Origin: an uncultured bacterium
GTDB lineage: Bacteria; Auribacterota; JACPWU01
DNA: 32,000 nucleotides
Reading direction: 5' to 3'
NCBI GenBank assembly: GCA_964640155.1
Contig: CAZXEQ010000010.1
Location: forward strand, 6,063-38,062
Positions 9,773-24,759 of this stretch are shown here, piece after piece. The notes under the pieces are model-generated. The model saw only the letters and a program-made list of their open reading frames with translations, did not search any database and was not told the DNA's origin. The translations under genes were made by a program, and so were the position numbers. Position 1 is the first letter of the stretch, and every line of letters starts with the position of its first letter.

Positions 9773-9856
9773 GAAACCATCCTTTGTTTAACCAAAGAAA
9801 TTTTAACATATTTTTTGAGATCATATTTCTGTTAAAATTAGAATAGGTTAAACCTT

Positions 9857-11086
9857 ATGAATACTTTTGAAATTACAAATATCTATTTTCATAAAGCGGC
9901 TTCTTTAATTGGACTTAACAATCGCGTCCAAGAAGTGCTTTTAAATCCAAGTCGCGAATTAAAAGTCTCTATTTCCATTGAACGCGAAGATGGAACATTA
10001 GCTCATTTTGATGGTTATCGTGTTCAGCACAATAATTCTAGAGGTCCTTTCAAAGGAGGATTGCGTTATCATCCTGAAGTGGATTTGGGAGAAGTCAAGG
10101 GACTGGCTTCTTTAATGACATGGAAAACTGCTGTGGTGGATATTCCCTTTGGAGGTGCTAAGGGTGGGATTACGTGTAATGTACAGTCACTGAGCGAAAA
10201 AGACATTGAAAACTTGACTCGAAAATTTGTTCGTCAAATTTATGAGTTTATTGGTCCCACCGTTGATATTCCAGCTCCTGACATGAATACCAATGCCCAA
10301 ATCATGGCGTGGATTATGGATGAATATTCTAAAATTCGGGGTTATGCCCCGGGTGTTGTTACTGGCAAGCCTATAGAGCTGGGGGGGTCTTGCGGAAGAG
10401 AACAGGCTACAGGGCAAGGTTGTGCAATGATCATTGAAAGATTTTTTCAGGACCAGGGGAAATCTCTTAAAAATATTAGATTTGCAATTCAAGGATTTGG
10501 CAATGTTGGTTATCACTTGTTTCGCTTCCTCTATCAGGCAGGAGCAAAAATCATTGCTGTTTCTGACTCACGAGGAGGTATTTATTCAGAAAAAGGATTG
10601 GTCCTTGATCAACTCCATCAACATTATCAAGTTCAAGGAACGGTTGTAGGCTTTTCTCAAGGTCAACCGATGAGCAATGAAGAACTTCTGGCTTTGGAAT
10701 GTGATTGTTTGGTTCCTGCGGCACTCGGCGGTGTTTTAACCAAAGACAATGCTTCTTCTGTAAAAGCAAAAGTTATTTTAGAGGCTGCCAATGGACCCAC
10801 AACACCTGAGGCTGATGAAATTTTTGAGAAAAAAGACATCATTGTCATTCCAGATATTTTAGCGAATGCAGGGGGTGTGGTTGTCTCTTATTTTGAATGG
10901 GTTCAGAATTTGCAAAGTTTTAGGTGGACCTTAGAACATGTAGAAGGAGAATTAAAGCGAGTCATGACTAAAAGTTATGATGCTGTTCTTCAAATTGCAC
11001 AATCCAAAAAAGTTTCTTTAAGAATAGCAGCTTTTGCTTTAGGTGTTGGAAGAGTTGCAAGGGCTTTAACTTTAAGAGGAGTGTAA
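9857..11086 (+). CDS. gdhA: Glutamate dehydrogenase (Glu/Leu/Phe/Val dehydrogenase family)
   Basis: 409 aa. GPFKGGLRYHPEV and PFGGAKGGI catalytic motifs. Rossmann GFGNVG. C-terminal GGVVVSYFEWVQN. Confidence 0.9.
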   Translation: MNTFEITNIYFHKAASLIGLNNRVQEVLLNPSRELKVSISIEREDGTLAHFDGYRVQHNNSRGPFKGGLRYHPEVDLGEVKGLASLMTWKTAVVDIPFGGAKGGITCNVQSLSEKDIENLTRKFVRQIYEFIGPTVDIPAPDMNTNAQIMAWIMDEYSKIRGYAPGVVTGKPIELGGSCGREQATGQGCAMIIERFFQDQGKSLKNIRFAIQGFGNVGYHLFRFLYQAGAKIIAVSDSRGGIYSEKGLVLDQLHQHYQVQGTVVGFSQGQPMSNEELLALECDCLVPAALGGVLTKDNASSVKAKVILEAANGPTTPEADEIFEKKDIIVIPDILANAGGVVVSYFEWVQNLQSFRWTLEHVEGELKRVMTKSYDAVLQIAQSKKVSLRIAAFALGVGRVARALTLRGV

Positions 11087-12498: not shown

Positions 12499-13359
12499 GT
12501 GATGATTCGATGGTTAGTGATGTTATCTATAACGTTCTCAATGATTTTTTTCTCGAAAGTACAGGGTTATGGAGAAAATTGGGTTTGGAATTTATCTCTT
12601 TTATTAGGCTTAAGTCTTTTGATTTTCGTTTTAGAGTTTGTATTCACGCGGTATTTTAAATCTTATCTTTTTAGTTTTCTTTTAGGTCCTGCGCTAGGAA
12701 TTTTCTTCTTTAACAGTATTGTTCTTCCTTTGAATTCTGTTTCGTTTGTGACCGCTTTTTTAAGCTTATCTTTCTATCAACTTTTCTTTAAATTGATTTG
12801 CATTTATTTTGGAATGACTCTGTTTTGCTTTTATACTCAAGAACATTTTTGTGTAAAAACTTTTTCTTATTCTTTGAACTTAAAAGAGAGTCCTTCTTTT
12901 CAAAGGCTGAAATGGTTTTTGAGGCTCATTTTTGTTTTTCTTTTTACTGTCTCTTTCTTCTCTTTTATTCAGTCTCAATCACAGGGGGGACAAGACTCCT
13001 CTCGTTGGCTGGCAGATATGGCGCATCAAGGATATGATTTTAATTTAAAAATTCAGGGGGCATGGGATAAAAATGTGATTGTTTTGATAGGATTTATATT
13101 TCTTTTTGGAATTGTGGAGTTTCTGTGCAGTCGTTTTCTGATTCGAAATGCTCTCATTTTGTTTTCCGCTATAAGTTTCGTGATCATCATGTCAGATGTA
13201 TTCATCTCCTCATTGAGTCGACTCGCTAAGGATTTGTCGAGTGATTTTTTGCAGGTCTGGATTTTTATGCTTTGTGCTTATTGGAGTTTTTTTATGGGGA
13301 GAAGTATTGTAAAAATGAAAACGTTTCGATTGCCTTTCATAAAGATTGAGTTTGTATGA
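12499..13359 (+). CDS. Polytopic membrane protein, no recognisable family
   Basis: 286 aa, very Phe/Leu-rich, about 7-8 hydrophobic segments. GTG 12499 / ATG 12502 lie 3-6 nt after the FNR stop. Coding is supported by length and tight operon spacing only. Confidence 0.6.
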   Translation: MMIRWLVMLSITFSMIFFSKVQGYGENWVWNLSLLLGLSLLIFVLEFVFTRYFKSYLFSFLLGPALGIFFFNSIVLPLNSVSFVTAFLSLSFYQLFFKLICIYFGMTLFCFYTQEHFCVKTFSYSLNLKESPSFQRLKWFLRLIFVFLFTVSFFSFIQSQSQGGQDSSRWLADMAHQGYDFNLKIQGAWDKNVIVLIGFIFLFGIVEFLCSRFLIRNALILFSAISFVIIMSDVFISSLSRLAKDLSSDFLQVWIFMLCAYWSFFMGRSIVKMKTFRLPFIKIEFV

Positions 13360-13364
13360 TCCTC

Positions 13365-13498
13365 TATATAAAAGCGTGTCCTTTTGAAAAGTAGTGGGTC
13401 CTGCCACTCGTCAGCCCCATCGTGCTCACGAAAAGTTGCGCTCGATGGGGCACCCCGCCGAGTGTCACCCACATCTATAAAGGACACGCCTTTATATA
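13365..13498 (+). repeat. GC-rich long-hairpin repeat, copy A
   Basis: Aligns end to end with 15121-15244 and with the reverse complement of 20185-20308. Folds as one long hairpin: GCGTGTCCTTT/AAAGGACACGC, GTGGGT/ACCCAC, CACTCG/CGAGTG, CCCCATCG/CGATGGGG. Begins 6 nt after the stop of the upstream gene. Confidence 0.9.
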
Positions 13499-13532
13499 CA
13501 AAATTATTATGGAAAAATAATTTGAGACATTG

Positions 13533-14483
13533 ATGAGAATAAAATTAAGCATTTTATTGTTTTTGATTTGTAGTCTTTCCTCTTTACAGGCAGAGATTCA
13601 ACCCACTACTTCAGAATTGCAGGATTTAAAGGCTTTGCAAGGAAAGGTTAAAGGGAAAATTTTGTTTCAATCAAATCGAGATCATCTTTGGCAAATTTAT
13701 CAGATGGATGTAGATGGGCGACATTTAAAAAGATTATCCGATGGTAAATCGAATGATCAAAATCCGGTTTGGTCGTCTAAAGACCATCGTATCTTTTTTT
13801 TCTCAAATCGTTCTGGTCTCTATCAGATTTATTCTATGAATGAAAAAGGGGGAGATATTCAAAAAGTTACAGAAGGGGACAAAGAAGAAAGATTGTGCAA
13901 TTTAAATAGGGATGCATCAAAGCTTCTGTTTCAAATTAATAAAAAAGATGCTATGAAAGCTTTTATTCGAGATCTTTCAGATCAGACTGTTCATGAAATT
14001 GATTTTTCGCAGTTTCCCGGTTGTAATGGGAAGATTTTCCCGATGCTTTCCCCAGATGGGCAAAAAATAGCATTTCTTTTCAAAGGAGGACAAGGAGCAA
14101 AGAGAGCGATCTATGTTGGAGATTTAGACTCCAGCTATCGTTTGAAAAATATTATTCCTATTCATTTGGGATGTTTTGTTGCATGGGCAAAAGACTCTGC
14201 TTCTTTTATCATGTGTTTTTTTGCTCCCGGAGGAACAGCTTTGCATTGGGTTAAAGCAGATGGATCAGAATTTACACCTCTGACAGAAGCAGGGCGATGG
14301 AATTATTTTCCTTGCTGGTCTACCGATGAAAAGTGGATTGCTTGGTCAGCCAGCCCTACCGAGCATCATGAGTATGAACAAGGCCCCTATTATGATATTT
14401 ATATTGCTTCTTTAGAAAATCGTAAACCCATTCGCTTAACATTTCAAACAGGTGCTGATTTAGTCACCAGTTGGAGAGAGTAA
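13533..14483 (+). CDS. Periplasmic TolB-like beta-propeller (PD40/WD40-like repeat) protein
   Basis: Signal peptide MRIKLSILLFLICSLSSLQA. Repeated PD40-like units (LFQSNRDHLWQIYQMDVDG..., PVWSSKDHRIFFFSNRSGLYQIYSMN..., PMLSPDGQKIAF...). The ORF track starts at TTG 13530; ATG 13533 is preferred. Confidence 0.75.
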   Translation: MRIKLSILLFLICSLSSLQAEIQPTTSELQDLKALQGKVKGKILFQSNRDHLWQIYQMDVDGRHLKRLSDGKSNDQNPVWSSKDHRIFFFSNRSGLYQIYSMNEKGGDIQKVTEGDKEERLCNLNRDASKLLFQINKKDAMKAFIRDLSDQTVHEIDFSQFPGCNGKIFPMLSPDGQKIAFLFKGGQGAKRAIYVGDLDSSYRLKNIIPIHLGCFVAWAKDSASFIMCFFAPGGTALHWVKADGSEFTPLTEAGRWNYFPCWSTDEKWIAWSASPTEHHEYEQGPYYDIYIASLENRKPIRLTFQTGADLVTSWRE

Positions 14484-14485
14484 CA

Positions 14486-15145
14486 ATGCCTTCACCTTTA
14501 GGTCATGCCTTAGCCAGTGCCCTGTTACATCGAGTAAAATTTCCGGGGAAATGGTTGTCAGATTGGAAAAGATTGGTTTTTCATCTTTTCTGTGGTATTT
14601 GTCCAGATCTTGATTTTATTCCGGGACTATTGATTGGGAATATTAATCGTTTTCATCATGGGTTCTCACATAGTTTCTTTGGGGCTTTTTGTATAGCGAT
14701 GGGGCTTTGGGTTTTTTATGGATTTTGGCGCTCTTCGTGGAAAGTTGTCGATGGACTCTTTATTTTTTCGCTTGTGGTTCTTCATCCTATCATGGATTTT
14801 TTAGCGATGGATACATCCTTTGCTTATGGATGTCCTTTGCTCTATCCCTTTGTGAAAACTTCTTATATTAGTCCGTATGTATTCTTTGAAGATATTCAAA
14901 GACCTAGCTTGATGGGATTTTTATTTAGCCGTAATAATCTTTTGGCTTTTTGGATTGAATTTTCTTTTTTTATTCCTCTCTTATTAGCTGCAACTTTTGC
15001 AAAGAGAAGAAAATGGATTTGGATGTTGGCTGGAGCTATTTCATTGAGTGTTCTTCTTTTTTATCTTCATAAGGTATATATTACTTCTTCAGGGATTGAA
15101 TTTATAAGGGTGTTGTCTATCAAAATATGTTTTTTAAATAGGTAG
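14486..15145 (+). CDS. Membrane-bound metal-dependent hydrolase, YdjM/DUF457 family
   Basis: MPSPLGHALASALL start and FHHGFSHSF motif typical of YdjM-like proteins, with several TM segments. The last 8 codons and the TAG stop (15143-15145) lie inside repeat copy B. ATG 14486 is preferred over TTG 14471. Confidence 0.7.
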   Translation: MPSPLGHALASALLHRVKFPGKWLSDWKRLVFHLFCGICPDLDFIPGLLIGNINRFHHGFSHSFFGAFCIAMGLWVFYGFWRSSWKVVDGLFIFSLVVLHPIMDFLAMDTSFAYGCPLLYPFVKTSYISPYVFFEDIQRPSLMGFLFSRNNLLAFWIEFSFFIPLLLAATFAKRRKWIWMLAGAISLSVLLFYLHKVYITSSGIEFIRVLSIKICFLNR

Positions 15146-15244
15146 CGGGGCCTGCCACTCGTCAGCCCCACCGTGCTCACGAAAAGTTGCGCGCGGTGGG
15201 GCCCCCCGCCGAGCGTCACCCGCATTTATAAAAAACATATTTTG
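15121..15244 (+). repeat. GC-rich long-hairpin repeat, copy B
   Basis: Core differs from copy A at about 9 of about 90 positions (hand count). Outer stem is ATATGTTTTTT/AAAAAACATAT; inner stems are GCGGG/CCCGC, CACTCG/CGAGCG and CCCCACCG/CGGTGGGG. Overlaps the 3' end of the ydjM-like gene and ends 24 nt before the prpD ATG. Confidence 0.9.
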
Positions 15245-15268
15245 ATTTATAAGTGTTGGAGGAAAATA

Positions 15269-16627
15269 ATGAATCTTGCTCAAAAAATGAGTCACTATGC
15301 ATCGAATTTGTCTTATCAAATGCTTCCCAAAGAAGTGATTCATCAGGCTAAACGGCATTTTTTAGATGCTTTGGCTTGTTCGTTAGGGGCTTTGTCTTCA
15401 GAGCCAGCAAAGGCCATCAAAAAAGTGGTACAGCGTGTAAAAGATTCACAAGGATCAACTTTACTTGGAACTTCTCAAAAAACGACTCCAGATTTAGCAG
15501 CTTTCTATAATGGAACATTGATCCGATATTTGGATTACAACGATACCTATCTTTCTAAAGAGCCGGCTCATCCCAGCGATAATATTGCAGCGACTTTAAC
15601 ACTTGCTGAAAGTTGCGGACGCAATGGGAAAGATTTTATAACAGCCTTGGTTCTTGCCTATGAAATTCAATGTCGACTGTGTGATGCCGCTTCTATCCGA
15701 GCGCATGGCTGGGATCATGTAACCTATGGACTTTTTTCTACTACGCTGGCTGCTGCAAAACTGCTTAAGCTTTCTCCTGTAAAAATGGAACACGCCCTTG
15801 GAATTTCTGCAACTGGGCATATTGCTTTGCGCCAAACCAGGTCGGGAGAGCTTTCCATGTGGAAAGGTTCTGCTTTTGCCAATACAGCTCGAAACGGTGT
15901 TTTTTCAGCACTTCTTGCTGAGCAGGGGATGACAGGTCCAGCTCCTATTTTCGAAGGAGAATTCGGATTTTTTAAATTGGTTTCAGGTTCTTTTGAAATG
16001 AATGAGTGGGGTGGGAAAAACAATCGCTTTAAAATCATGGACTGTTTTATTAAATATTTTCCAGCAGAATATCATGCCCAGGCAGCGATTGAAGCTGCTT
16101 TAGAGTTAGGTTCTAAAATTTCTAATATTCATGACATTGAAAAAATTTCTGTAAAAACTTTTAAAGCAGCTTGTGAAATCATTGCAGGAGAACCTGAGAA
16201 GTGGCATCCGCAATCTCGAGAAACAGCAGATCATAGTCTTCCTTATTGCGTGGCTGTGGCTTTAATGGATGGAAAAGTAGAGCTTGCTCAGTTTAAGGAA
16301 AAAAGAATTTTGGATTCCAAACTTCAATCTTTTATACAAAAAATTACGGTCGAGGAAGATACATCTCTTACTCGTAAATATCCCTATTCACTTCCTGTGA
16401 ATATAAAAATTATAATGAAATCAGGGCAAGTTTTGGAAAAATATTTGGAAAATCCCAAAGGGCATGCCAGCCGACCTTTAAGTGATTCTGAAATTGAACA
16501 AAAATTTAAAACCCTTGCGAAAAATAGATTATCTTCACGGCAACAAGTAAAAATTTTAGATCAAATATGGAATTTAGAGAAGGTGAAGGATATAGGAGCT
16601 TTTGTTAGATTGTTTGCAACCGTTTAA
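15269..16627 (+). CDS. prpD: 2-methylcitrate dehydratase (MmgE/PrpD family)
   Basis: PrpD-family pattern throughout (FLDALACSLGA, DYNDTYL, HPSD, GWDHVT, ADHSLPY). ATG 15269 is preceded by GGAGG at 15258-15262. The ORF-track start at 15173 reads through repeat B and is an artefact. Sits in a cluster with prpB and prpC. Confidence 0.88.
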   Translation: MNLAQKMSHYASNLSYQMLPKEVIHQAKRHFLDALACSLGALSSEPAKAIKKVVQRVKDSQGSTLLGTSQKTTPDLAAFYNGTLIRYLDYNDTYLSKEPAHPSDNIAATLTLAESCGRNGKDFITALVLAYEIQCRLCDAASIRAHGWDHVTYGLFSTTLAAAKLLKLSPVKMEHALGISATGHIALRQTRSGELSMWKGSAFANTARNGVFSALLAEQGMTGPAPIFEGEFGFFKLVSGSFEMNEWGGKNNRFKIMDCFIKYFPAEYHAQAAIEAALELGSKISNIHDIEKISVKTFKAACEIIAGEPEKWHPQSRETADHSLPYCVAVALMDGKVELAQFKEKRILDSKLQSFIQKITVEEDTSLTRKYPYSLPVNIKIIMKSGQVLEKYLENPKGHASRPLSDSEIEQKFKTLAKNRLSSRQQVKILDQIWNLEKVKDIGAFVRLFATV

Positions 16628-16638
16628 CAGTGCAAATA

Positions 16639-16779
16639 GATCATCCCTCAGAGTGTTCAGACACGTTCGTTTACCCCTGCGAGGTAAACGAACTTGAGAG
16701 GACGATCTCGCTCCCCCGATGTTTATCGGGGACCATGCTCGCTTGATCTCCAATGGTCTTCACACTTTGTTGGATGATC
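16639..16779 (+). other. Multi-hairpin GC-enriched structured insert between prpD and prpB (candidate ncRNA or MITE-like element)
   Basis: Closing stem GATCATCC..CAGAGTGT (16639-16656) pairs with ACACTTTG..GGATGATC (16762-16779). Internal perfect 11-bp hairpin GTTCGTTTACC/GGTAAACGAAC (16665-16693). Hairpin CCCCGAT-GTTT-ATCGGGG (16714-16731). Hairpin (G)ACCAT/ATGGT(C) (16731-16758). Confidence 0.65.
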
Positions 16780-16853
16780 ATGATAACTCTTATTTATATG
16801 TATTAACTATTTGAGACAGGACTCGTTTCATAAATTTTAAAAAATCGAGAACT

Positions 16854-17693
16854 ATGAATAAATATCTCTCTCCACTTCTTAAAAATAAAAAAACGGTTTT
16901 AGTTCCTGGTGTCTTCAATGCCATTACCGCTAAACTTGCAGAAAAATTAGGGTTCAAAGCTCTCTATCTGTCTGGGGCCGGGGTATCCAATGCCCTTTTG
17001 GGAAAACCGGATATAGGACTTATCACGCGAGATGAACTCTTAAAACAAGTCCGTTATATCAAAGATGTTGTGAGTATCCCCTTAATTGTGGATGTGGACA
17101 CGGGATTTGGTGACCCGCAGGATGTGGCAGAAACAGTAAGACAAATGGAAAAAGCAGGGGCTTCTGCGATTCAAATCGAGGATCAAATCCCGGCTAAAAA
17201 ATGTGGCCATCTGGGAGGAAAATCTCTTGTCTCGATGGATATCATGATAAAAAAAATTCAAGCAGCGATTAAGGCTCGTAAAAATCCGGATTTTTTAATT
17301 ATTGCTCGTACAGATGCCAGAAGTGTTGAAGGAGTTGAAAATGCGCTTATTCGCGCACAAAATTATATTGATGCAGGTGCCGATATTGTTTTTCCAGAGG
17401 CGCTTGAATCTCCTAAAGAATTCAGAATGTTTTCTAAGATGATTCAGAAACCTCTTTTGGCCAATATGACAGAGTTTGGAAAAACCCCATATATTTCTGT
17501 TCCGGAATTTCAGAAATTAGGATATTATCTGGTGATTTTCCCAATGACCTCTTTTCGAGTTATGATGAAAGCTGCAGAGCAGGTATTCAAGGATTTAAAG
17601 AAAACGGGCTCTCAAAAGAAATGGCTTTCAAAAATGCAGACAAGAAAAGAACTTTATGATTTAATCGACTACAAAAATTTTGACTCAATTTAG
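16854..17693 (+). CDS. prpB: Methylisocitrate lyase (isocitrate lyase/PEP mutase family)
   Basis: 279 aa. LSGAGVSN, DVDTGFG, IQIEDQIPAKKCGHLGGK and IIARTDA motifs. Adjacent to prpC and prpD. Confidence 0.88.
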   Translation: MNKYLSPLLKNKKTVLVPGVFNAITAKLAEKLGFKALYLSGAGVSNALLGKPDIGLITRDELLKQVRYIKDVVSIPLIVDVDTGFGDPQDVAETVRQMEKAGASAIQIEDQIPAKKCGHLGGKSLVSMDIMIKKIQAAIKARKNPDFLIIARTDARSVEGVENALIRAQNYIDAGADIVFPEALESPKEFRMFSKMIQKPLLANMTEFGKTPYISVPEFQKLGYYLVIFPMTSFRVMMKAAEQVFKDLKKTGSQKKWLSKMQTRKELYDLIDYKNFDSI

Positions 17694-17701
17694 AGGATGT
17701 T

Positions 17702-18847
17702 ATGACAGAAGTTATTTTAAAATCTCAAAGACCTTATAGTCCTGGCTTAGAAGGAATCGTGGCGGGACTTTCTCAAATTTCAGAGATTGATCCTAAAACT
17801 GAGCACTTGACGTACCGAGGATACGATATTCATGATTTGACAGAATATTCGACGTATGAAGAAGTGGCTTTTCTCCTTTTTTGGGGGCGTCTTCCCAAGA
17901 AAAAAGAATTAGAAGAGTTTTCAAAAACATTAGTAGAAAACCGTGATATTCCTAAAGCCATTCTTGAAGCTTTTAAGCAATTTCCTTCTTCAGCCCATCC
18001 TATGGATATGCTTCGTACCTCGGCTTCTCTTTTAAGTATGTTTGATCCTGAACAAGGGGATCATTCTCATGAGGCAAATATTAGAAAAGCAGTGCGTTTG
18101 GTAGCAAAATTTCCTTCTCTTATTTCTGCAGCTTTCTGTATCGCACAAGGTAAAAAATGGCAACTTGCAGATCCAAAATCATCCCATGCTAAAGCTTTTT
18201 TGAGTATGATCACGGGAAAAGAACCCGATGATTATGCGGTTCATGTTTTTGATCAGACCTTGATTATTTATGCTGAACATGGGTTTAATGCTTCTACTTT
18301 TTCAGCGCGTGTGACGGCTTCAACACTCTCAGATTTATATGCGGGGGTTACTTCGGCTGTTGGAACTTTAAAAGGTTCTTTGCATGGGGGAGCCAATGAA
18401 CAGGCCATGAAAATGCTTTTAGAAGTTGGAGATGGGGAACACGCCAAGATTTGGATTAAAGGAGCTTTGTCGGGTAAGAAGCGAGTGATGGGGTTTGGGC
18501 ATCGTGAATATAAAAATGGAGATCCCCGAGCAAGAATCCTTAAACCTCTTATGAAAAAATTAGGGGAAAGAGTCGGACAGACACAATGGTATCAAATTTG
18601 TGATGTCATTGAGGAAGTCATGGTCAGAGAAAAGAAGCTTTATCCAAATGTGGATTTCCCAGCAGGAGCCCTTCTTTATATGCTGGGTCTTCCCACCGAA
18701 ATTTATACACCTGTTTTTGCTTTATCTCGCGTCGCAGGTTGGTCTGCTCATGTGATTGAACAGTTGGATAATAATCGTTTGATTCGTCCCGAATGCGAAT
18801 ACACAGGTGCAAGGGACTTGAAATATGTCCCCATCGAAAAGCGATAA
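17702..18847 (+). CDS. prpC: 2-methylcitrate synthase / citrate synthase family
   Basis: 381 aa. Citrate synthase signature MGFGHREYKNGDPR and catalytic His/Asp context (HGGANE, YPNVDF). The prp context favours methylcitrate synthase. Confidence 0.85.
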   Translation: MTEVILKSQRPYSPGLEGIVAGLSQISEIDPKTEHLTYRGYDIHDLTEYSTYEEVAFLLFWGRLPKKKELEEFSKTLVENRDIPKAILEAFKQFPSSAHPMDMLRTSASLLSMFDPEQGDHSHEANIRKAVRLVAKFPSLISAAFCIAQGKKWQLADPKSSHAKAFLSMITGKEPDDYAVHVFDQTLIIYAEHGFNASTFSARVTASTLSDLYAGVTSAVGTLKGSLHGGANEQAMKMLLEVGDGEHAKIWIKGALSGKKRVMGFGHREYKNGDPRARILKPLMKKLGERVGQTQWYQICDVIEEVMVREKKLYPNVDFPAGALLYMLGLPTEIYTPVFALSRVAGWSAHVIEQLDNNRLIRPECEYTGARDLKYVPIEKR

Positions 18848-18943
18848 CCTGAAATCCCTCAAAAAGGTTTATCAGCTGTATTATTCTCTTCAGAATTTTC
18901 TTTCTGATTTCAAAAGTCCATCATATTTTCAGTTGGGTGTTTC

Positions 18944-20176
18944 ATGAAGACATTCTATCCTGAACAAATTCAATTATTTCCTCAAGCGATTAAATGGTTT
19001 TTGATATCTTCAGTGATCGGTATTTTAGCAGGAAGTGCTTCTGCTTTTTTTCTTATCTCTTTAGATGGGGTGACTCAGTTACGAGATGCTCATCTTTGGA
19101 TCATCTTCTGTTTACCTGTGTCAGGGCTTTTAATAGGTCTCATTTATCATCATCTTGGTAAAAAAGTTGAATCTGGGAATAATCTTATTTTAGATGAAAT
19201 CCATGATCCTAAAAAAGTTGTTCCATTTAGAATGGCACCTTTGATTCTTTTATCTACACTGATGACACATTTTTTTGGAGGTTCCGCTGGAAGAGAAGGA
19301 ACAGCTGTGCAGATGGGGAGTTCGTTAGCGGATCAACTTTCTGGTCCTTTGAGATTTAAGGCAGAAGATAGGCGGATCTTACTCATGGCTGGAATGAGTG
19401 CAGGTTTTGCCTCTGTCTTCGGAACACCTTTAGCGGGAGCTATTTTTGGCCTAGAAGTATTGGCTATTGGAAAACTTCGATACGATGCAATTTTCCCATG
19501 TTTTATTGCGGCTGTTGTGGCAGATCAAGTAACTTTAGCTTTAGGAGTTCATCACACTTCTTATATTGTTTCTAGTATTCCAACTTTTTCGATCAGCAGT
19601 TTGGTTCAGGTTTCATTGGCAGGTATTGTTTTTGGTTTAATCAGTCGATTTTTCTCTATTGTCACTCATGGGTTAACTTCTTTTTCTAAAAAGCATGTGA
19701 CGTACAATCCTCTTCGTCTTTTTATCGGTGGTGTTATTGTTGTAATTCTCATCAAACTTTGTGGAACTACGAAATATATTGGGCTTGGAATTCCAACCAT
19801 GGTGGAATCTTTTTCGATAAAACTTCCTCCTTGGGATTTTTTAGGCAAATTTATATTTACAGTTTTAACCCTTGGAATGGGTTTTAAAGGAGGAGAAGTA
19901 ACCCCTTTATTTTTTATTGGAGCAACCCTTGGAAATGCATTAAGTTATTTTTTGACGCTTTCTACTTCTCTTTTAGCGGGTCTTGGATTTGTTGCTGTGT
20001 TTGCTGGAGCGGCCAATACTCCCTTAACCTGCATGATCATGGCCATGGAGCTTTTTGGATCGTCTATTGGAGTTTATGCAGGGTTAGCTTGTGTTGTAAG
20101 TTATCTTTTTTCAGGACATGCGGGGATTTACCACTCTCAAAAAATAGGAACAAGTAAGTATTTTACTGGTTCGTAG
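18944..20176 (+). CDS. CLC-family channel/antiporter, CLC-F (fluoride/proton antiporter) type
   Basis: 410 aa polytopic protein. Selectivity-region motifs GNNLI (instead of GSGIP), GREGT and GGEVTP match my memory of the CLC-F 'N-T' clade. Confidence 0.75.
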   Translation: MKTFYPEQIQLFPQAIKWFLISSVIGILAGSASAFFLISLDGVTQLRDAHLWIIFCLPVSGLLIGLIYHHLGKKVESGNNLILDEIHDPKKVVPFRMAPLILLSTLMTHFFGGSAGREGTAVQMGSSLADQLSGPLRFKAEDRRILLMAGMSAGFASVFGTPLAGAIFGLEVLAIGKLRYDAIFPCFIAAVVADQVTLALGVHHTSYIVSSIPTFSISSLVQVSLAGIVFGLISRFFSIVTHGLTSFSKKHVTYNPLRLFIGGVIVVILIKLCGTTKYIGLGIPTMVESFSIKLPPWDFLGKFIFTVLTLGMGFKGGEVTPLFFIGATLGNALSYFLTLSTSLLAGLGFVAVFAGAANTPLTCMIMAMELFGSSIGVYAGLACVVSYLFSGHAGIYHSQKIGTSKYFTGS

Positions 20177-20184
20177 TGCACAGA

Positions 20185-20308
20185 AGTGAGTTCTTTATAA
20201 ATGCGGGTGGCACTTGGCGGGGAGCCCTACCGCGCGCAACTAGTACTCGAACACGGTGGGGGGCCCTGACAAGTGATAGGACCTGCGACCCTTAAAAAGG
20301 GCACACGG
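20185..20308 (-). repeat. GC-rich long-hairpin repeat, copy C (inverted relative to A and B)
   Basis: The reverse complement aligns with A and B (..GTCGCAGGTCCTATCACTTGTCAGGGCCCCCCACCGTG..GCGCGCGGTAGGGCTCCCCGCCAAGTGCCACCCGCATTTATAAAG..). The apical loop is diverged and 1 nt longer. Begins 9 nt after the CLC stop. Confidence 0.85.
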
Positions 20309-20416
20309 CTATAGAAATATTTTATGAGGGACTATTGTTTCCAATTCATCTTTCTCTCTCTCTATCTTTTTGATATCCTTTCTTTACTCTTTTTATGAAG
20401 AATGGGGCTAATCGTT

Positions 20417-21007
20417 ATGAAATTTAATTGGATGGACATTGTCTTTATGGCCTTGGCGCTTCGAGGCATTTGGGTTGGAACCAAAAGAGGTATTTTGGGA
20501 GAGCTCATCTTAACTGCGGGACTTCTTGCTTCTATTGCTATGGCTCTGTTTATTTCTTCTCCAACAGGTTCTGTTTTGGCTAATCAGTTGTCTTTTGGTA
20601 TTCAATTTACAACACAATTTTTGTCGTGGTTAGTTTTAGGAGCAGGCTTTATTGTCTCATTGATTATAGCTAAGGTTGTTCAAAAGCTTTCTCATCTCAT
20701 TATTCAGTCTCCGATTGATAAAGGAGCCGGAGGTGTTTTGGGAGGGGCTCGAGCCATTCTCTTAAGCGGGATTTTACTTTCATTTGTTCTTCATTCAGGG
20801 CAGTTATTTTTTCAAGAACATGCAAAAGAGTCGATTATTGGTTCTTTCGTTATTCCCAAAGTAGATGTCTTGTACGAAATCGTTAAACAAAAAATAACTC
20901 CAACAGAGCTTGTAAAACTTCAAGATGAATTAACGGTTGAGAGTGATCAGGAAGCCGTTCAAGAACCTTCTCAAGATATATCCGAACCCTCAGAAGAAAC
21001 GCAGTAA
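20417..21007 (+). CDS. cvpA: CvpA (colicin V production) family membrane protein
   Basis: Starts MKFNWMDIVFMALALRGIWVGTKRG, typical of CvpA. Four TM segments and an acidic C-terminal tail. Alternative upstream ATG at 20402. Confidence 0.75.
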   Translation: MKFNWMDIVFMALALRGIWVGTKRGILGELILTAGLLASIAMALFISSPTGSVLANQLSFGIQFTTQFLSWLVLGAGFIVSLIIAKVVQKLSHLIIQSPIDKGAGGVLGGARAILLSGILLSFVLHSGQLFFQEHAKESIIGSFVIPKVDVLYEIVKQKITPTELVKLQDELTVESDQEAVQEPSQDISEPSEETQ

Positions 21008-24573: not shown

Positions 24574-24673
24574 AAGTGATAAGTCATAAGTGGTAAGTTC
24601 TTAGGAGTGTTTTAGATCTTGTATCTTCTAAACTTATAACTGACAACTTATAACTTATCACTTTTTTATTTTT
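24574..24673 (+). terminator. About 90-nt imperfect hairpin plus T-tract downstream of rpoD (intrinsic terminator candidate)
   Basis: AAGTGATAAGTCATAAGTGGTAAGTT... (from 24574) pairs with ...AACTTATAACTGACAACTTATAACTTATCACTT (to 24663), roughly 28 bp with a few mismatches. Followed by TTTTATTTTT. Begins 9 nt after the rpoD stop. Confidence 0.65.
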
Positions 24674-24683
24674 GATATTATTC

Positions 24684-24759
<76 letters not shown>

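Follow-up and report, generated by a model that had tools for sequence, protein, structure and literature searches.

A family of dispersed GC-rich hairpin repeats in an uncultured PVC-group lineage with the features of mobile palindromes

The GTAG tag of REPs is cleaved by RAYT transposases. REPINs are GC-rich hairpin units of ~100 nt that lie outside genes in many copies, and compensatory changes, which keep their arms complementary, are common among them (PMC3116915). GTAG- or GTGG-tagged repeats occur in PVC genomes, the GTGG variant being found in Opitutus terrae GTAG-20, and REP dimers are nested in long AT-rich palindromes such as Anabaena GTAG-15 (PMC3733652). The repeats that we describe here are likewise GC-rich, largely extragenic hairpin units present in many copies, with arms kept complementary by compensatory changes. 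They carry a GTAG or GTGG tag at the 5′ side, sit inside a longer AT-rich palindrome and, as do REPs in PVC genomes, include intragenic copies.

The repeats also resemble the hairpin MITEs (ERIC, Correia/NEMIS, RUP, Nezha, and the QMITEs of Coxiella), which are non-coding, 100 to 200 nt long, and built of inverted-repeat arms. As with these MITEs, the copies are intergenic and often cotranscribed, show insertion polymorphism, and decay when old. Where transposases bind each TIR as duplex DNA, strong covariation between the arms is not expected. In contrast, the arms of the element covary strongly; furthermore, it has no sequence similarity to the hairpin MITEs that Rfam, plasmid, and phage searches could detect, lacks a defined short TIR with a fixed-length duplication, and has no known parent IS.

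Two further systems come close. The Rickettsia palindromic elements (RPEs) are palindromic repeats of ~100 to 150 nt in an AT-rich genome and insert in frame, sparing the gene, as is the case here for an alpha-2-macroglobulin (P0125) and for the new C terminus of YdjM. However, the host phylum is unrelated, most copies of the element are intergenic, and RPE-4 and RPE-6 carry CGTC tags instead of GTAG (PMC3733652). Intrinsic (bidirectional) terminators share with the element a G+C-rich hairpin with a 5′ A-tract and a 3′ T-tract, often just past stop codons. In contrast to such terminators, the hairpin of the element is ~110 nt long with large internal loops and a T-tract of 3 to 4 nt, and its copies are homologous to each other, insertion-polymorphic, and free of terminator-scan calls.

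The copies A, B, and C (Table 1) lie in the window, that is, the whole stretch of 32,000 nt analyzed here. They probably represent a mobile, non-autonomous DNA element of ~140 to 150 nt that has multiplied in one PVC lineage. The family itself is new but of a known kind, MITE/REPIN-like mobile palindromes, and not a new kind of RNA regulator.

Table 1. Copies of the element, their parts, and the candidate target duplication (coordinates are those of the window).
Feature	Position	Strand	Sequence or remark
Copy A, full indel unit	13360..13512 (equivalently 13355-13507), 153 nt	+	block missing from the syntenic MAG contig L002
Copy A, GC-rich core	13391-13481	+	
Copy A, AT-rich outer arms		+	TATATAAAAGCGTGTCCTTT / AAAGGACACGCCTTTATATA
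Copy A, trailing 8 nt			TATTATGG; possible decayed target duplication
Copy B	15113..15243	+	core 15142-15232; outer stem is the AT-rich variant; 15113-15255 with the right copy of the candidate duplication
Copy C	20171..20318	-	core 20194-20289; between ClC channel gene and cvpA; inverted orientation
Candidate target duplication at B, left copy	15098..15112	+	GAATTTATAAGGGTG; ydjM coding sequence proper, 3′ part
Candidate target duplication at B, right copy	15244..15255	+	GATTTATAAGTG; followed by prpD RBS GGAGG and ATG
DNA copies of the family			A, B, C in the window; B′ in L002 (orthologue of B); D in L003; E in L010; F in L011; G, H in L012
Copies known as peptides only			P0121, P0125, P0126
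Terminal arms, AT-rich, consensus			TTGTATATAAAAGTGTGTCCTTT ... AAAGGACACACTTTTATATACAA; enclose the 91-nt GC-rich core
Family consensus			TTGTATATAAAAGTGTGTCCTTTAAAAAA-GTAGCGGGTCCTGCCACTCGTCAGCCCCACCGTGC-TCACGAAAAGTT-GCGCKCGGTGGGGCNCCCCGCCGAGTGTCACCCGCATCTATAAA-GGACACACTTTTATATACAA
Element end sequence			TTGTATATAAAAGTGTGTCC

The homology of the three stretches, which had been proposed from the letters by a first, sequence-only reading, was borne out: they are present where that reading placed them, and MAFFT aligned them with a mean column identity of 81%. A 28-nt degenerate core pattern matched the window at exactly A, B, and C (0 matches expected from 100 shuffles). The cores are conspicuous because the window has a G+C content of only 33 to 42%. 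The cores of A and B show 10 differences in 86 aligned positions, close to the earlier hand count of about 9 in 90, and the compensatory examples listed by the same reading (five pairs of the outer stem, S1, S2, and S3) all turned out to be correct when read again. Its unit of ~125 to 135 nt was too small, as the indel at A comprises 153 nt. The first reading had also folded every copy into a single long hairpin. This applies to A (RNA fold −61.1 kcal/mol, z −8.9) and B (−57.3 kcal/mol, z −7.1), which fold similarly as ssDNA (z −7.8 and −7.0, respectively), while the fold of C is weak (z −2.6 as RNA and −1.1 as ssDNA). With 10 of 42 pairs non-Watson-Crick, a 4-nt insertion, and a changed loop, C is a decayed copy.

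The element is ~140 to 153 nt long and forms one imperfect palindrome, with inverted-repeat arms that span its full length and pair perfectly in A and E (42/42 Watson-Crick pairs each). In the consensus, AAAA and TTTT border the outer stem on opposite sides, and this stem could be a putative bidirectional terminator. The only ORFs in the element are read-through frames, and it has no coding capacity otherwise. In contrast to REPINs, it is tagged at one end only: the left core end reads GTAG in five copies, GTGG in three, and GTCG in one, while the mirrored right end reads [GAT]ATG, without GTAG. Its halves cannot be separated into recognizable palindromic REP units of 20 to 40 nt, and direct reading of the sequence confines the one local palindrome to the right arm (CGGTGGGGCNCCCCGCCG). 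It is also longer than a REPIN, having AT-rich terminal arms within the mobile unit, and it shows at B a possible duplication of 12 to 15 nt, which RAYT/IS200-type insertion does not make.

In total, we found nine DNA copies at eight loci, in addition to three copies known as peptides only; the copy-level statistics given below rest on the nine DNA copies. A terminal 25-nt pattern was run over 185,579 species-representative genomes, a collection that excludes the window's own genome, and matched two loci, both in the MAG JAYRIK01 (GCA_041906865.1, "Candidatus Auribacterota bacterium", PVC group). Because the frames of the element are open, its conceptual peptides were searched against protein collections, which yielded further copies annotated as spurious small ORFs. 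The 33- to 83-aa "proteins" P0121 to P0124 and P0126 of public protein sets are translations of the repeat. The family is spread within one lineage of uncultured PVC-group bacteria, consisting of the Candidatus Auribacterota MAG and its relatives, with a density of three copies in the 32 kb of the window and two in one MAG contig of 6.1 kb. In run SRR8893623, Logan contigs end within B, as expected of a repeat. Thus small (~140 to 153 nt), non-coding, multicopy, and dispersed over eight loci, the family has the makeup of MITEs.

The searches for known families agreed with the first reading, which had recognized no Rfam family in the sequence. At the gathering score, Rfam identified RNase P RNA and two tRNAs in the window and no family over the elements; at E≤10, the elements gave chance microRNA and lncRNA matches only (E>2). 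Blastn of the element against plasmids and phages returned nothing, and a pattern scan of viral contigs gave 0 matches. A loop-proximal pattern had three matches in JGI metagenome contigs, all of them to one unrelated sequence that shares a GC-rich 26-mer by chance. A nine-copy nhmmer profile detected no extra or degenerate copies in the window or the examined loci, including 45 kb of L008, L009, and L013, and neither synteny nor family scans found a transposase in the window. As candidates, attC, uptake signals, and group II intron fragments were rejected, with no defining motifs, Rfam support, or cassette-like context.

Evidence for mobility comes from orthologous sites that lack the element. 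The MAG contig L002 is syntenic to positions 13139-19858 of the window at ~88% identity. It lacks exactly the 153 nt of A, both AT-rich outer stems included, and AAAAATAATTTGAG follows immediately on the stop codon of the gene upstream. As the polarity of the indel at A is read without an outgroup, a precise deletion in the MAG, instead of an insertion, is possible. B is present in the MAG (136/140 identical) and absent from three more distant relatives that share the gene order: in L008 (PrpD 85% identical), ydjM and prpD overlap as ATGA; in L009 (70%), they are separated by a 13-nt spacer; and in L013 (62%), the junction holds an unrelated G-tract palindrome. The absence of B from all three indicates that it arose through insertion, which replaced the final ydjM codons and provided the stop codon. 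The ydjM-like ORF (14471-15145) terminates inside B, which contributes its last 8 codons and stop. Presence and absence at orthologous sites, together with the dispersal of the copies, favor the mobile palindrome of the REPIN/MITE kind that the sequence-only reading had listed among its candidate roles.

The palindrome at L013, a G/C-tract insert at 9845-10000 of a Chlamydiota-labeled MAG (GCA_016178055.1; CCCCTCTTAAGGTAAGAGGGG; GGGGAGTTGGGGG...CCCCTCCAACTCCCC), is unrelated to B; thus, the ydjM/prpD junction has been colonized independently by different hairpin DNAs.

The sequences that flank B, GAATTTATAAGGGTG and GATTTATAAGTG, both align to the single-copy GAGTTTGCTAAGGTG of L008. Excision of the element with one copy of the repeat would restore the ORF end EFIRVGGK*, whose stop, like that of the relatives, overlaps the start of prpD. 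The direct repeat at B is the best of all copies, with 11/12 matches as compared to a maximum of 10/12 in mismatched-flank controls. Over all copies except B, true left and right flank pairs scored no better than mismatched pairs, and a fixed-length target duplication for the whole family was not significant in this test. At A, the trailing TATTATGG is not common to copy D, is absent from the empty site, and weakly resembles the target. A target duplication of 12 to 15 nt is therefore a possible candidate feature at B only.

B and its orthologue B′ are 97% identical, whereas the third codon positions of the neighboring genes are 70 to 82% identical and plain spacer is 77% identical. Purifying selection on B was considered as a reason and dropped: the patch of ~98% identity with the MAG runs from ~15040 to ~15360, centered on B, and reaches ~80 to 110 nt into the flanking genes, third codon positions included, while the surrounding genes are 83 to 92% identical. 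The extension of the patch into both genes points to recombination instead of constraint on the element and suggests a recent recombination or transfer of a B-bearing allele between lineages.

We then come to the pairing of the arms. In the nine-copy alignment, 93% of the cells are standard pairs, and double changes affect 14 of the 42 stem pairs, as compared to 6.2±1.7 in shuffles (0/500) and 2 to 3 in slid controls. The copies fall into two classes. The intact ones retain nearly all Watson-Crick pairs (42/42 in A and E, 41/42 in B, and 40/41 in G), while C, D, F, and H are decayed, with 6 to 10 non-Watson-Crick pairs each. Pairwise among the intact copies, the ratios of double to single changes are 8:1, 3:0, 6:1, 7:1, 6:2, and 5:1. 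Because these copies differ almost only by compensated pairs and by 5 to 10 unpaired columns, they descend from diverged source lineages, in each of which the hairpin was kept perfect. Half-step states are found as well: T.G in F where A has T-A, and T.G in H where C and E have T-A.

The only evolution in situ that can be observed is that between B and B′, with four substitutions, three of them in stems and all three uncompensated. Since intact copies are compensated, the B/B′ changes are not, and copies of greater age decay, selection for complementarity seems to act while the element propagates, as is reported for REPINs, and not at each locus, with resident copies then decaying neutrally. 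The sequence-only reading had taken the compensation as a sign of selection on the fold. The covariation of the arms is real, but it does not demonstrate selection on an RNA fold locus by locus, given the uncompensated changes in B/B′, the similar numbers of G.U and A.C mismatches in the sense of the element (11 versus 9), and the compensated arms known from REPINs as hairpin-forming mobile DNA (PMC3116915). In a dispersed hairpin repeat, compensatory changes can reflect selection on the replicating element and are not proof of a functional RNA, because the intact copies differ by compensated pairs while the resident ones decay.

The double changes might instead be mutational. In quasipalindrome template-switch mutagenesis, a change is copied from one arm to the other, which produces symmetric double substitutions. 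Template switching or mismatch correction in the extruded hairpin would then account for the covariation with no selection on the fold, an explanation that we consider unlikely, even if arm-to-arm correction is a possible contributor. It accords with nearly all doubles being symmetric transitions, with intact copies being almost free of half-changed pairs, and with G.T and A.C mismatches being similarly frequent (11 versus 9; 3 versus 6 in the core only), as from a strand-symmetric DNA process. However, C, D, F, and H keep their 6 to 10 unrepaired pairs, B′ has acquired three new ones, and the three conserved asymmetric internal loops (TCCTGC/TGA, TCAG/GCGGGGNG, and GTAG/CATC) are symmetrized in no copy.

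Slightly less probable still, in our estimate, is that the copies are host-functional RNAs, acting as bidirectional terminators, 3′-UTR stabilizers or insulators, or sRNAs, with the fold kept at each locus and mobility accounting for their arrival only. In the window, A, B, and C all lie within 10 nt of a stop codon, which would fit such a role, as would the resemblance of the AAAA/TTTT-flanked outer stem to a bidirectional terminator. The orientation of the element is that of the downstream gene at seven of eight loci, which is not significant, yet unexpected under random insertion. The mismatches in the presumed transcript sense, derived from the mismatch list and the contexts, lean the same way without reaching significance (G.U 14 versus A.C 6), and the ydjM/prpD junction of L013 holds a hairpin insert of its own. 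The wider contexts nevertheless give no support to the stabilizer, terminator, or sRNA role that the first reading had offered. Five copies (A, B, D, G, and H) are flanked by codirectional genes and oriented in sense, C is oriented antisense, and E and F occupy the promoter regions between divergently transcribed genes. One copy is inside an ORF: P0125, known from protein sequence alone, is a 1913-aa bacterial alpha-2-macroglobulin with an in-frame element peptide at residues 983-1017, between bMG6 (839-948) and the bait-region domain (1022-1161), and with the full A2M architecture on both sides. This is an RPE-like, in-frame insertion that leaves the host ORF intact. Because E and F are divergent and the P0125 copy is intragenic, the location at gene 3′ ends, correctly noted for the window, is not a property of the family. 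Furthermore, A and B are missing from close relatives, decay is under way in C, D, F, and H, no compensation accompanies the in-situ changes between B and B′, and the identity of these two reflects recent recombination that spans parts of the flanking genes. A sigma-70/terminator scan revealed nothing specific to the elements, with six terminator-like sites in 13000-21000 and none on the elements. The T run after the outer stem is 3 to 4 nt, shorter than the at least 5 T of an intrinsic terminator, for which a short GC-rich stem and a loop of 3 to 8 nt are also expected, and Rfam gave no match.

A caveat of the sequence-only reading, prompted by the AT-rich outer stems of A and B, which differ in five pairs, was that the GC core alone is mobile and enters AT-rich terminator hairpins at loops that were already there. 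This is refuted: the empty A site (MAG) and the empty B sites (L008 and L009) have no hairpin, the outer arms belong to the insert and to the consensus, with A, E, F, G, and H carrying homologous arms although their loci are unrelated, and all 153 nt act as a single indel.

If the copies are those of a non-autonomous mobile element, as we favor, its targets would be AT-rich stretches at the boundaries of genes and, at times, coding sequence, in which the open frames of the element would permit read-through. The hairpin, as ssDNA or RNA, may be what the mobilizing enzyme needs, and only lineages with complementary arms would go on producing copies. Once fixed at a site, a copy would decay neutrally, and any terminator-like or mRNA-end effects on neighboring genes would be a by-product. 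The GTAG tag hints at a RAYT/IS200-type tyrosine transposase as a candidate mobilizer, while the duplication at B hints at a DDE transposase. A bolder version, which we regard as doubtful, is a REPIN-like replicator outside Proteobacteria, whose unit is one hairpin of 150 nt that has AT-rich arms and carries one GTAG tag. A hitherto unrecognized enzyme would move it, possibly leaving long variable duplications, and short recombination tracts, such as the patch of 98% identity that surrounds B, would pass it between lineages. The same tight operon junctions would be colonized time and again, and translationally coupled genes would be uncoupled there.

With these elements, a little-studied uncultured PVC lineage gains a repeat family. 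Its copies record recent insertions and recombination, which is useful in strain typing, and they break short-read assemblies. They also give rise to spurious small ORFs and to extensions at the N or C terminus of proteins, as in the case of the YdjM C terminus and of prpD, whose longest ORF (15173-16627) begins at a GTG in B, while the conserved start is the ATG at 15269.

Several observations concern the surroundings of the copies. Between the ferredoxin-NADP reductase gene and ydjM, region 12499-14483 holds genes for a 286-aa hypothetical protein and a 317-aa TolB-like beta-propeller. Both are present in the window and the MAG and absent from L009 and L013, while L008 has a 56-aa ORF only; A lies between these two lineage-specific genes. 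The ClC chloride-channel gene (18944-20176) beside C is absent from L009, where prpC is directly followed by cvpA, so that C, too, borders on a difference in gene content.

A GC-rich insert of another kind, ~230 nt long and with multiple hairpins, is found at 16630-16859, between prpD and prpB. Its closing stem, GATCATCC...GGATGATC, spans ~16638-16778, and its RNA fold has −67 kcal/mol (z −4.3). The MAG has 8 nt in place of this insert, L009 and L013 lack it and have the two genes abutting, and Logan contigs break inside it. It had no Rfam match and no second copy in the examined loci and probably represents a second repeat family. Last, immediately upstream of a tRNA (24684-24756), an inverted repeat made of AAGTGATAAGT-like units occupies 24574-24663, with 31-nt arms of 84% complementarity and a 28-nt spacer.
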